Part shown: positions 15,418 through 21,558 of the stretch, piece by piece | Layout of the letters: each line of letters begins with the position of its first letter | Numbering within the stretch: the first letter of the stretch is position 1 | NCBI GenBank assembly: GCA_964016885.1 | Contig: OZ024749.1 | Location: 45,570,001 to 45,634,000, forward strand | From: Eledone cirrhosa | Lineage: Eukaryota | DNA length: 64,000 nucleotides | Direction of reading: 5' to 3' | Notes under the pieces: model-generated | The model's database searches: none | What the model saw: the letters and a program-made list of their open reading frames with translations, nothing else | What the model was told of the DNA's origin: nothing | Position numbers and translations under genes: made by a program

Positions 15418-15477
15418 TATTTTATCTGATGAGAGCGTACCAAATTTTGGTACCCGTGAAATATATATAATAGAATA
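15418..15477 (+). ncRNA. Minimal type-I hammerhead ribozyme (canonical core)
   Basis: Stem I TATTTTAT(15418-25)/ATAGAATA(15470-77); core CTGATGA 15426-32; stem II GTACCAA-att-TTGGTAC with partly decayed base; GAAA 15458-61; palindromic stem III ATATATAT; predicted cleavage after A15469; AATAAA overlaps the 3' arm; lies in an island between (TA)n tracts. Confidence 0.8.
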
Positions 15478-15646
15478 AATGTGGTTTTATAAATATAGTT
15501 TCCATTTATTAATACCCTTGATATTATACTCCAGTAAACTTGTCGAGTGCTTCGAATCTGTTATAAATATATTTGTTGAATTACCAACAAATTAAATATC
15601 CCATTGTTTATATATATATATATATATATATATATATATATATATA

Positions 15647-16163
15647 GTGGTAGAACACTGGAAGTTAATATCCGTAGTGGGACGATTTAGGTAGAAGTGG
15701 TTACAAAACAGTTAGTTCACCATACCGAGAACAATTGTTTCACCTTAGCGGATCCTCAGCTCGTAATGGACAATCCGGAGCTTTGTAGTTATGTAAGAAA
15801 CGAATACATATTCTAAAGAGATTACGCAATAGTGCTTGCCTAAACACGAGGATTGAATTCTTCACACGTTGTCCACACGTCTGGAAACACTTCTTACATA
15901 ACTACAAAGCTCCGGATTGAATTACAACAACATCCTAATGTTCTTATCAACGAGAAACTTTCGGACTTTCGCAGTTATATCCCTCACACCTCTCGCGCGC
16001 AATTTACCTGTGAATTAACCTGTGTGAAGTGATCGTTTCTGCACTTGCGCGTTAGTACGATTGTCCTTCATGTTCCGTATAACCATGTCCATTACGAGTA
16101 TAACCGTCACAAAGGTGAAATAATTGTTTTCGGTATGATGAACTAACTGTTGTGTAACCACTT
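15647..16163. mobile_element. Penelope-like pLTR-type remnant with nested inverted repeats, inserted in (TA)n
   Basis: Outer inverted repeat ~15695-15772 vs ~16086-16163 (hammerhead core intact on the left, replaced on the right); inner perfect 29-bp inverted repeat 15771-15799 vs 15891-15919; (TA)n on both sides. Confidence 0.6.
15720..15769 (-). ncRNA. Minimal type-I hammerhead ribozyme (canonical core)
   Basis: Minus strand reads CCATTACGAG-CTGAGGA-tCCgctaaGGt-GAAA-CAATTG-TT-CTCGGTATGG: stem I of 8 bp with a 2x2 internal loop, short stem II, palindromic stem III ACAATTGT. Confidence 0.75.
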
Positions 16164-16994
16164 ATATACATATATATATATATATATATATATATATATA
16201 TATATATATATATATATATATATATATATATAGAGAGAGAGAGAGAGAGAGAGAGAGAGAGAGAGAGATAGAGAGAGATAGATAGATAGAGAGATAGAGA
16301 GAGATAGAGTGGGAGAGAAAGATTGAGAGAGATAGTTGTATGGGCACATGTGACTTTGCTATAGGTGTGGGTATAAAATAGAAATATGTACGTCAAATTA
16401 TGATCCCACTACCAAGATATTTCAATGACAACGAATTGATGTTTAATATAATATAATTCTCGTCGTCGGTCGAAATGTTCGAACTATTGGGTAAACACCA
16501 CAAATATCAATGGATGCGAAGACTATTACTGCTAAAGGCTGAAGATGCAACGTAGTATAACTTTATTCACTATTGAAAGTGTTATTGTATATATATCTAA
16601 TGCATATCATATCTTATTCAGCTGTTAGGTGCAGCGTTATAGTAACACTGGTAATACATATTAGCTGTTGATGTTACTGTTGATTTGCTGTGTAAGCTAA
16701 TCAATATTTCATCATACCATTCATTAATTTGTTCAGACCAATCACTTACTAATTCACCTGTAAATTAAATGTTTAAGTGCATGTCAATGTCAATGTCCTG
16801 ACAACATTGAATTCTTTCCCCTCAACGAAATAGATGAACTACACGGTCCAATATATATATATATATATATTATATATATATATATATATATATATATAAT
16901 ATATATATATATATATATATATATATATATATGATATGTTGATTTAAAACTGCACTATCCACAAGTGTTTTTTAGCCTTCATATCATGTTCTCC

Positions 16995-17065
16995 TGTTTT
17001 ATCTGATGAAAACACAAATATTATTGCATGATGATGTTTGTTTTTGAAATGCGCATAATAAAATA
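16995..17065 (+). ncRNA. Type-I hammerhead ribozyme with long stem II (canonical core)
   Basis: Stem I TGTTTTAT/ATAAAATA; CTGATGA 17003-09; stem II 17010-45 pairs at 15 of 16 positions (G-U included) around a GCAT loop; GAAA 17046-49; palindromic stem III ATGCGCAT; predicted cleavage after A17057. Confidence 0.85.
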
Positions 17066-19190: not shown

Positions 19191-19400
19191 TGTATTTTTT
19201 ATCTGTAAATTATCTTTTCTAAGATTTGTATTAACTGTTATTAAGCTGTTCGTAAACCGTTAGGTTACTTAATTTGTTGTCAACTGATGGTTCTCAACTT
19301 CCGGTGTAAAATTATAAATTTAAGTAATCTAACGGTTTACCAACAGCTTAATAACGGTTAATACAACCTTAGAAAAGATAATTTACAGATAAAAAATGCA
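19191..19400. repeat. ~82-bp inverted repeat (foldback)
   Basis: 19191-19273 vs 19319-19400 with few mismatches and a ~45-nt spacer. Confidence 0.9.
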
Positions 19401-20045
19401 TAATATAATATACCTACAATAACAAAATGGCCAGTAATACGGAGGAATTTACAATTAACAAACAAACATCTATAGACTATAAACAACTTAAAATAATCCC
19501 ATGGTTAATAGCTGTGAGTAACAAACAACACATACACATAGATACGAACTACATCACAAAAACACTTAAATGATAATCACATACCGAACTCTATCTTGTG
19601 CTTTACATTACACCTTACATAAGAAATACCTACATTATCAACACATGCCTCTCTAACAAATTGCACACTATCTTAAATGTTTATAATAAATATAACATGC
19701 CTTAACACCCCACAGAATATATGTTTTCTTCAACTGCAGTATAACTCTTTCCTCATACATGCATTATTTCGTATTGACTGTATTGACTCCGGCATTGTAC
19801 ACCAATTGTCCTTGCCTATAACTTCTTTCCCTGTGTTTATTTTGCTTGTGATTTTTTGGCTTGTGCTTTTTGCTTTTACTTATACCTATTACACATCCAA
19901 CCACTGGTGCCTGTAAATGTGTTATTTCAAGCGGAACATCTTTTTAACTCCCGAATCTCCACATAATGCCTTTGACACTAACAACAACTATGTACCCTAA
20001 ATGTTCTAAATGACTATGATTTTAGATACACGTTTTCGACATTCC

Positions 20046-20100
20046 TTATGCTCCGATGAATTCAGACTTCCCTCTGGAAGAAACAATTGTCAGCTAATAA
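20046..20100 (+). ncRNA. Minimal hammerhead ribozyme-like motif (U4C core)
   Basis: GCT-CCGATGA-a-TTCAGA cttccc TCTGGA-a-GAA-ACAATTGT-C-AGC-t-AATAAA; palindromic stem III and GUC triplet; one core substitution and an A-A mismatch at the base of stem II. Confidence 0.6.
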
Positions 20101-21140
20101 ATGTTCTAAACTAAAATTTGATTGTTATAACACTTTATATATATATATATATATACTAATATATACATGTATATGTACATATATATATATATGCATATGC
20201 ATCTATCCATCTATCTATCTAGCTATATATATATATATATATATATATATATATATATATATATATATATATATATATATATATATATATATATATATAT
20301 ATATATATATGTATATATATATATATATATATATATATATATATATATATATATATATATATATATATATATATATATATATATATGTATATATATATAT
20401 ACATATATATATATATATATATATATACACACCGTATGAATGGCATATACATGTACACATGTACGCTGTTATATGCCGAATGGTGTTGGCTCACGAACAC
20501 GATTAAAGATCAGATTCATCAGGGTAAGTTGACTCACACTAATTTGGAAAATTACCTTTGGTCGAACGGCAAGCAAGTCAGGTATTTGATTAGAAGCTAA
20601 AAGCGGAGATTAAGAATCTAATTATGCCAGCTTAGATTGTTCATTAGATACGACTCTCTCTCTCTCTCTCTCTCTCTCTCTCTCTCTCTCTCTCTCTCTC
20701 TCTCTCTCTCTCTCTCTCTCTCTCTCTCTCTCTCTCTCTCTCCCTCTCTCTCTCTCCCTCTCTCTCTCTCTCTCTCTCACTCGCTTTCCTAATTTCTCTC
20801 TTCACCCTCTCTCTCTTTACCATGTTCTCTCCCTTGTCTCTCTCTCTCAATCTTACACACATATATACGCAGTCATATGCACACATGTCCTTTATCTCTC
20901 TTTCTATCTTTCGCTACGATGTTCCTTTTAATTAAGAAAATGGCGATGTCGCTTTCTTCCTCTACGTATGTATATATTTATACACACACACATATATATA
21001 TATATATATATATATATATATATATATATATATATATATATATATGTGTGTGTGTGTGTGAGAGAGTATGTGTATGTGTATGTGTGTATGTGTGTGTGTG
21101 TATTTATATATGTGTGTGTGTATATATATGTATATATATT

Positions 21141-21558
21141 AATATATGTATAGTATATTTGATAATATACTGTATATTTATTTTAAAATATTTTGAAGAC
21201 CATTTGCTATGAGTTTTAAAGTAGTTACTTTGTCAATTACTTTCTCTCGGCAAAAACAAAGGGAAGCAACCGACAGCTGTTTCTCGTTTGTTAACGGTTA
21301 TGAAGATTGCTTATCCCCTCGCTTTTGCCGAGCCTTATCGAAGCTGGATTCTTATAGAATTCCAGTGATGTTTAAGAGGTGATTAAGCAGAGCAGTTGCC
21401 GGTCCAGCAAAACGAGAAACAGCTGTCGGTTGCTTCCCTTTGTTTTTGCCGAAACAAAGTAAGTGACATAGTCACTACATTAAAACTCATAGCGAATGGG
21501 TTTGAAAATATTTAAAAATAAACATACAGTATATTATCAAATATACTATACATATATT
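21141..21558. repeat. ~150-bp inverted repeat (foldback) carrying hammerhead halves
   Basis: 21141-21290 vs 21408-21558; both arms contain GAAACAGCTGTCGGTTGCTT on opposite strands. Confidence 0.9.
21264..21312 (-). ncRNA. Decayed hammerhead ribozyme (U3-A8 type core with G5C)
   Basis: Minus strand: AAGCAATC-TTCATAA-cCGTT aaca AACGa-GAA-ACAGCTGT-C-GGTTGCTT; 8-bp stem I, palindromic stem III, GUC triplet. Confidence 0.55.

Follow-up and report, generated by a model that had tools for sequence, protein, structure and literature searches.

The question raised by this locus is why six hammerhead ribozyme motifs lie within some 6 kb of the Eledone cirrhosa genome, and whether they could cut host RNA. 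The window analysed is a stretch of 64 kb, positions 45570001-45634000 of its contig, in an assembly of 3.0 Gb and 1,796 contigs. Feature coordinates are those of the window. An earlier note, made from the window alone, had described the motifs as minimal hammerheads with unrelated stems I and II, each in a microsatellite-bounded island and left by several non-coding retroelement families. With a probability of about 0.88, the motifs are hammerheads that belong to the ends of six separate repeats inserted in (TA)n: truncated copies of five Penelope-like element (PLE) families encoding a reverse transcriptase (RT) and a GIY-YIG endonuclease (EN), and one 316-nt non-coding repeat that was likely moved by PLEs.

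The window was searched with a descriptor that combined a core (at most one mismatch to CUGANGA or UUGANAA), GAA, a perfect palindrome of 6-10 nt, H and stems I and II. Under a strict stem II threshold, five of the six motifs were matched in the 64 kb and motif 2 fell below threshold. Under a relaxed threshold all six were matched, with zero further matches. Positions, strands, palindromes and cut sites were all present in the sequence; the predicted cuts lie after 15469, 15730 (- strand), 17057, 18917, 20091 and 21272 (- strand). Forty microsatellite-preserving shuffles of the window gave a mean of 0.025 matches (maximum 1) against the six observed. Forty evenly spaced 10-kb samples of the genome contained 14 descriptor matches in 400 kb, a few of them low-scoring noise, compared with 0-1 per set in eight shuffled sets. 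The Rfam-type covariance scan suggested by the earlier note did not recover the hammerhead family: there were zero hammerhead matches at the gathering score or at E ≤ 10, and the matches obtained were microsatellite noise.

Hammerhead 1 (15418-15477, +), placed by descriptor, folding and covariation, has a CUGAUGA core and the palindrome AUAUAUAU. Hammerhead 2 (15720-15769, -) has a CUGAGGA core, a 2-bp stem II, the palindrome ACAAUUGU and a GUU site. Hammerhead 3 (16995-17065, +), found also by pattern search, is intact and carries CUGAUGA and the palindrome AUGCGCAU. Hammerhead 4 (18884-18921, +), likewise intact, has the U3-A8 variant core UUGAAAA and the palindrome ACCGGU. Hammerhead 5 (20046-20094, +) has the core CCGAUGA, which is family-wide, and the palindrome of motif 2, on the opposite strand. 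Hammerhead 6 (21264-21312, -) reads UUCAUAA, with the palindrome ACAGCUGU; its family core is UUGAUAA (U3-A8), and the window copy has lost G5. G5 is an invariant base of the hammerhead core, and the window copy of motif 6 is predicted to be inactive. The copies of motifs 1 and 5 carry stem II changes relative to their families (one pair in motif 1, the base of the stem in motif 5). Three of the six window copies are damaged (motifs 1, 5 and 6), and motifs 2, 3 and 4 have the commonest form of their families.

Stem III is a perfect palindrome of 6-8 nt in all six motifs, as had been proposed. The term minimal does not apply in its strict sense, in which stem III is the conserved A-U pair only; judged by sequence, the motifs are variants with a palindromic stem III. 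Motifs 1 and 3 have a common stem I (TRTTTTAT/ATARAATA) and a common cut triplet, so for this pair the description of the stems as unrelated was withdrawn. AATAAA was present at or after the 3' arm of four motifs (1, 3, 4 and 5), again as described, and is family-wide. It occurred at most 22 nt past the cut in 37/39 copies of family 1, 62/63 of family 3, 35/35 of family 4 and 17/17 of family 5, in 0/22 of family 2 and 0/13 of family 6, and in 1.7% of random 22-mers. This hexamer is a possible polyadenylation signal, one that ribozyme cleavage would remove. The short 3' end of families 1, 3 and 5 lies about 30-45 nt beyond AATAAA, and the hexamer past the cut is also family-wide in several other families of the open reading frame (ORF) type. 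At about 30 (TA)6+ tracts per 10 kb of window sequence, microsatellite bounding carries little information on its own; the real signal is the fixed 3' junctions.

Covariation was examined in 12 relatives of family 1. Pairing is kept in 94% of cells, and both sides have changed in 7 of the 19 pairs, figures that are inflated by a set partly chosen with the pairing descriptor and related by descent. Slid registers pair at 37-58%, and 1/500 shuffles reach the observed value, a count that is not a probability because of the same selection and descent. Variants of families 3, 5 and 6 that were selected by flanking motifs also retain stem II. The stems thus covary between subfamilies, and the earlier note had named a lack of covariation as grounds for refutation. 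No monomer of the six motifs has the full three-way junction in its predicted minimum-energy fold. For all six, the double-hammerhead fold is predicted to be more stable than two monomers, which agrees with the proposal that such motifs cleave as dimers. It lies at most 1.4 kcal/mol above the dimer minimum for motifs 3, 4 and 6. A dimer model with low dimer activity has been described for PLE hammerheads (PMC4209133).

Each island was then identified by a genome-wide search, one of the proposed checks, and every one proved to be a copy of a high-copy repeat family rather than single-copy. DNA searches returned 2,078 candidates for island 1, 2,879 for island 2, 1,846 for island 5 and 2,211 for island 6; these first-look counts are not copy numbers. 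Exact patterns matched 11,491 times for family 4, 18,069 times for family 3 and 33,861 times for the family-1 type (sum 63,421), and the reversed-pattern controls matched 0, 0 and 17 times, respectively. Only 28 exact 39-mers of family 6 were found in the genome. Family searches and junctions together support several independent hammerhead families of PLE or retrozyme type that insert in (TA)n.

The search for autonomous RT + GIY-YIG partners connected ORFs to families 1-5. The label non-coding therefore holds for motif 6 alone, since families 1-5 code for RT and GIY-YIG endonuclease. Families 1, 3, 4 and 5 join such ORFs in copies outside the window, and for family 2 the end of the ORF lies inside it. 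A single ORF with RT followed by a C-terminal GIY-YIG was seen in families 1-4, and only the endonuclease part in family 5. The arrangement pseudo-long terminal repeat (pLTR)-ORF-pLTR, with a hammerhead on both sides, was found for family 3 (L131 and L146), family 1 (L132, around a broken ORF) and family 2 (L267). For family 4 a hammerhead copy was seen downstream of the ORF only (L253), and in family 5 the long 3' untranslated region (UTR) is contiguous with the endonuclease end in L172. The family 3 unit in L131 is 3,940 bp long. Among the 26 of 30 family 3 ORF loci that were processed, the hammerhead is downstream in 25 and additionally upstream in 10. Its ORF is stop-free in 51 of the best 58 genomic matches, at 96-100% identity, and that of family 4 in 60 of the best 75 over a 583-aa query. 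Stop-free copies at 96-100% identity suggest recent activity of families 3 and 4. Copies of family 2 are 82-92% alike and often broken, with a length of about 2.5 kb (L267). By their coding content, families 1-5 are endonuclease-bearing (EN+) PLEs.

The insertions themselves carry a common signature. A (TA)5+ tract lies at most 300 nt from the predicted cut in 175/199 copies (background 22%), and each family has two fixed distances. Of 52 divergent pairs, 44 (40 of 47 for families 1-5 alone) consist of one member with a tail and one with a short end. Families 1-5 show 5' truncation, an inverted 5' copy and a tail at a single end. In an anole PLE the tail corresponds to the interval that separates two internal RT start sites, and the target is AT-rich; its hammerhead requires the element's protein for cleavage, ribozyme mutants insert normally in vitro, and RNA-seq reads ending at the site were absent (PMC11167929). 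By analogy with the anole element, the protein of the present families would nick AT-rich DNA, and reverse transcription would begin at two internal sites downstream of the ribozyme. Two copies would result: one direct, with a short end, and one inverted on the 5' side, with a tail of 35-90 nt. The ribozyme would act only in the element's own tandem transcript, paired via the palindrome and/or helped by the element protein, and cleavage would yield unit-length RNA. Copies like those in the window, solo and truncated, would be passengers. Throughout the genome these families tend to insert close to one another, and the pile-up at this locus is probably an extreme case in the tail of that tendency.

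Family 1 is represented in the window by a Hydra-type PLE pLTR fragment (15352-15608, +) with its long (tail) end in (TA)n, which has candidates of about 90% identity and a pLTR-ORF-pLTR copy in L132. The family 2 insertion (15648-16165), recovered by DNA search, is a 5'-truncated Hydra-type PLE, direct on the + strand (short end) and with a 5' inverted copy that has a tail and holds hammerhead 2. It retains the final 43 codons and the stop of its RT/GIY-YIG ORF (15789-15920, +; 86% identity to L043 by tblastn, and translation) and a decayed direct copy of hammerhead 2 whose core is destroyed (16086-16166, +). The family 3 insertion (16938-17098, +) is the 3' end of a young Hydra-type PLE, with a median identity of 98.8% to other copies. 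A seventh insertion (17996-18175, -; 18006-18124 by homology search) is a decayed family-1 relative with a CAGAUGA core at 18092 and an imperfect palindrome. The family 4 insertion (18849-18991, +) is the 3' end of a Neptune-type PLE, identified by pattern search and ORF link. Family 5 left a Hydra-type PLE 3' UTR (19120-20137, +) with an inverted tail piece on its 5' side. The family 6 insertion (21133-21594) consists of the non-coding unit of about 316 nt (-, short end) and an inverted partial copy with a tail (+, 21410-21594), which holds a half copy of motif 6 (21410-21467, +). The seventh insertion, the decayed copy of motif 2 and the half copy of motif 6 came from homology searches and were absent from the earlier note. 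Two tandem copies of a 305-bp unit, at 97% identity, were observed at 10901-11512.

Families 1, 2, 3 and 5 were placed in the Hydra clade by motifs. This clade is characterized by RWK, DKT, a CxCx5C linker, the absence of CCHH and (TA)n targets, and a Hydra family of Octopus bimaculoides with a hammerhead is listed in the supplement of the same paper (PMC8557442). Here LRW and SDKTNN occur in families 1, 2 and 3, where the third RWK-like residue is R, T, I or P, not K. The CxCx5C linker is present in families 1, 2, 3 and 5 (the family 1 copy has a stop inside it), and CCHH was absent from the endonuclease by inspection of families 2 and 3. Insertion was in (TA)n in 122/143 copies of the four families. 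Family 5 was seen as linker and endonuclease only; its N-terminus was not seen. The family 4 ORF matches Pfam RVT_1 and GIY-YIG, and inspection of L253 and L258 showed GLKF, DKG, a linker of the form CX4CxxC and an endonuclease with CCHH. Its protein is 24% identical to that of family 3 over a short stretch. These motifs point to a Neptune-type element. Naiad identity was ruled out by the C-terminal endonuclease and the presence of hammerheads.

Further elements of these kinds were observed. A very common short repeat lies in (TA)n with an inversion and a tail (14830-14906, about 26570, 34575, 47190, 56770-56930 and 60030). It borders a Hydra-type ORF on both sides in L171, and no hammerhead was recognised in the 600 nt at its 3' end; it is possibly a Hydra family without a canonical ribozyme. 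Another Hydra-type element (L133, 2244 on - and 5649 on +) has a U3-A8 hammerhead with a 2-bp stem I and the palindrome ACGUACGU at both ends. Family 5 and its relatives in L082, L039 and L190 have C at core position 4 throughout (CCGAUGA, CCGAAGA), a covarying stem II and a palindrome that switches between ACAAUUGU and ACAGCUGU.

Family 6 differs from the others in its coding capacity. Its natural unit is 316 nt long, with 36% GC, a longest ORF of 57 aa and a predicted circle fold at z -8.3, and none of 50 loci had an ORF of its own. The family is circularly permuted: the sequence before the hammerhead is its own downstream tail, with a period of 315-317 nt in most copies, and 22/50 loci continue into a next unit. 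One tail end and one short end were found in 18/18 of the loci with termini on both strands (of the 50). This PLE-like signature indicates that family 6 was likely moved by Penelope enzymes. It is an even call whether family 6 and its relatives are RNA circles of the retrozyme type that Penelope enzymes copy into genomic DNA. An ORF that adjoins family 6 in L055 and L133 was rejected as a partner, as TA/GA tracts intervene and the ORF has its own hammerhead. In L182 a relative that is 70% identical occurs as an array, with six ribozymes at a spacing of 311 bp. It has a C3-G8 core and a re-paired stem II, and a C3-G8/U3-A8 swap separates it from family 6. In that array (L182:143-2490, G000:C6:99370800 onward) the 311-bp units are identical, with a CUGAUGA hammerhead and the palindrome ACGCGU, and inverted copies precede them. 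Another hammerhead repeat group, with the palindrome ACUAGU, was seen in L009, L040, L064, L070, L078, L127 and L133. It is apparently non-coding and circularly permuted, with inversions. An octamer-like site, ATGCAAAT, lies upstream of its ribozyme.

Several results weigh against the proposed identity of the six motifs as PLE-type insertion ends. For motifs 1, 2 and 5 the dimer has a minimum that is 2.4-7.5 kcal/mol below the double hammerhead, and the covariation set of family 1 was not independent of the pairing descriptor. The Hydra-type ORFs are unrecognised by Pfam, so their assignment is by motifs and not by a tree. The ORF link of family 5 consists of one contiguous copy (L172), together with L072, which shares the intervening UTR, and L083, which has an inverted endonuclease piece. 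Six families lie in 6.3 kb here, against a maximum of three in 30 loci selected for a family member and two in 40 random loci, and the number of motifs does not follow the density of (TA)n (Spearman 0.12, p 0.36). The absence of Rfam matches and the weak monomer folding z-scores (-0.2 to -1.9) would fit chance pattern matches in AT-rich DNA, an explanation that the shuffles, the reversed-pattern controls and the covarying stems refute and that keeps virtually no probability. That all six are non-coding retrozymes is true in outline for family 6 and highly improbable as a whole: ORFs are linked to families 1-5, part of one lies inside the window, and the idea is refuted for families 1-4, family 5 being less firmly linked to its ORF. 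As to the density of the cluster, at a uniform rate the probability of at least six motifs in 6 kb is 1.8e-8, i.e. 0.009 such windows per genome. The seven insertions in 6.1 kb are of differing age (median identity to relatives 88-99%), and on either side, between -31 kb and 15.4 kb and between 21.5 kb and 71.6 kb, no family hammerhead was found. A true, lasting hotspot or trap for PLE insertion (e.g. germline-accessible chromatin), beyond the tail of co-clustering, would explain these figures; density of (TA)n as the cause is not supported by the density comparison. Heterologous families are, however, already enriched threefold within about 1.5 kb of any member genome-wide (31 in 367 kb, compared with 11 in 384 kb; p 9e-4, in a small sample from which 13 overlapping loci were dropped and in which mutated self-copies were reclassified). 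A few such clusters are therefore expected, about 2.6 six-family clusters genome-wide by a rough estimate from this small sample. On C1 the proximity of families 3 and 4 is significant when compared with a global shift (p 0.008-0.015) but loses significance under local jitter (p 0.07-0.23), so part of the co-clustering is due to regional density. A special hotspot is thus possible but rather doubtful.

The remaining possibility, raised in the earlier note for the event of transcription, is cleavage of a host RNA that runs through the locus, on one strand or both. The motifs would then work as weak monomers, or in trans with RNA from other copies. Copies 2, 3 and 4 have the commonest form of their families, trans partners may exist because families 3 and 4 are young and abundant, and for an axolotl hammerhead whose stem III has 2 bp, 22% cleavage of the monomer in 1 h has been reported (PMC7229834). 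The predicted monomer folds nevertheless lack the full three-way junction, and none of the motifs has an intact partner of its family on the strand where it lies. Of the motifs on the - strand, one is intact (with the GUU site), one lacks G5 and one is decayed. No Pfam match was obtained for 140 of 183 longer ORFs in the window and 50 kb on each side, a search that could miss short exons. The anole PLE ribozyme, for its part, needs its protein, and RNA-seq ends were absent at its site (PMC11167929). Cutting of host RNA by the window motifs is unlikely, since the copies are solo and no host gene was found, and we give it only a small probability.

Taken as PLE-type insertion ends, the motifs make the locus mostly a pile of retroelement ends, and its value is that of a pointer. 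Hydra- and Neptune-type PLEs have undergone a very large and in part recent expansion in this genome, where exact hammerhead patterns match at least 63,421 times. It also offers natural, family-wide core variants (U3-A8 twice and C4 once, and the C3-G8/U3-A8 swap between homologues). The element kind is already known; it is unusually dense here, and the families are new members. In a survey that did not cover most subscription papers, Repbase or Dfam, neither these families nor a retrozyme with a PLE tail signature turned up in print. The repeat annotation of O. vulgaris describes recently active Penelope families, and its main text, as available, makes no mention of hammerheads or ribozymes (PMC13282606). 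Non-autonomous PLEs are known, MRC1 being one example, and have been described in Chlamydomonas (PMC8557442), and retrozymes have been described with PLEs only as a strong candidate helper (PMC7229834). The PLE insertion signature of family 6 bears on the question of which enzymes move animal retrozymes. A PLE-specific mark on a 316-nt non-coding hammerhead unit would, if true, be direct genomic evidence for the proposed PLE-retrozyme partnership. PLE-type hammerheads number more than 63,000 in this genome, and dozens of its Hydra- and Neptune-type helpers are stop-free, so that it would supply both the passenger and the candidate enzymes. The stop-free helper ORFs also make the purpose of PLE hammerheads testable.

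Compared with known systems, the motifs resemble the PLE hammerheads of PMC4209133. They are alike in type I topology, pLTR location, mostly solo occurrence in truncated copies, inverted pairs on opposite strands 100-700 bp apart, the U3-A8 variant, a palindromic stem III and the large number of families in one genome. The strict minimal form of that paper has no stem III, and the palindromes of 6-8 nt found here are closer to its Drosophila, rotifer and shrimp variants; a family-wide C4 core (CCGAUGA) was not met in its available text. Families 1, 2, 3 and 5 agree with Hydra-1_Obim and the Hydra clade (PMC8557442) in RT followed by GIY-YIG, the CxCx5C linker, (TA)n insertion and the pLTR hammerhead, and families 1-3 also have the RW, DKT and YRDD motifs. 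Their hammerheads differ in sequence from that of Hydra-1_Obim in the supplement, and their tails are about 70-90 nt long, against 30-40 in the Hydra clade. As far as that source describes it, the clade has few families outside cnidarians and elements generally <3 kb, whereas family 3 measures 3.7-3.9 kb and has at least 51 stop-free copies. Family 4 is like Neptune-type PLEs (linker CX2-5CxxC, CCHH endonuclease) in GLKF, DKG, CX4CxxC, its CCHH-type GIY-YIG and microsatellite insertion; its hammerhead has a U3-A8 core. Family 6 is like the metazoan non-LTR (long terminal repeat) retrozymes of PMC7229834, its closest known systems together with non-autonomous PLEs such as MRC1, in its non-coding unit in the range of 170-400 nt, GC <45%, type I hammerhead, strong predicted self-pairing of the circle and copies of more than one unit. 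It differs from these retrozymes in that it occurs mostly as copies of one to two units with 5' inversions and a 35-nt tail, the PLE signature, rather than in long arrays; a full head-to-tail array was seen only for its relative in L182.

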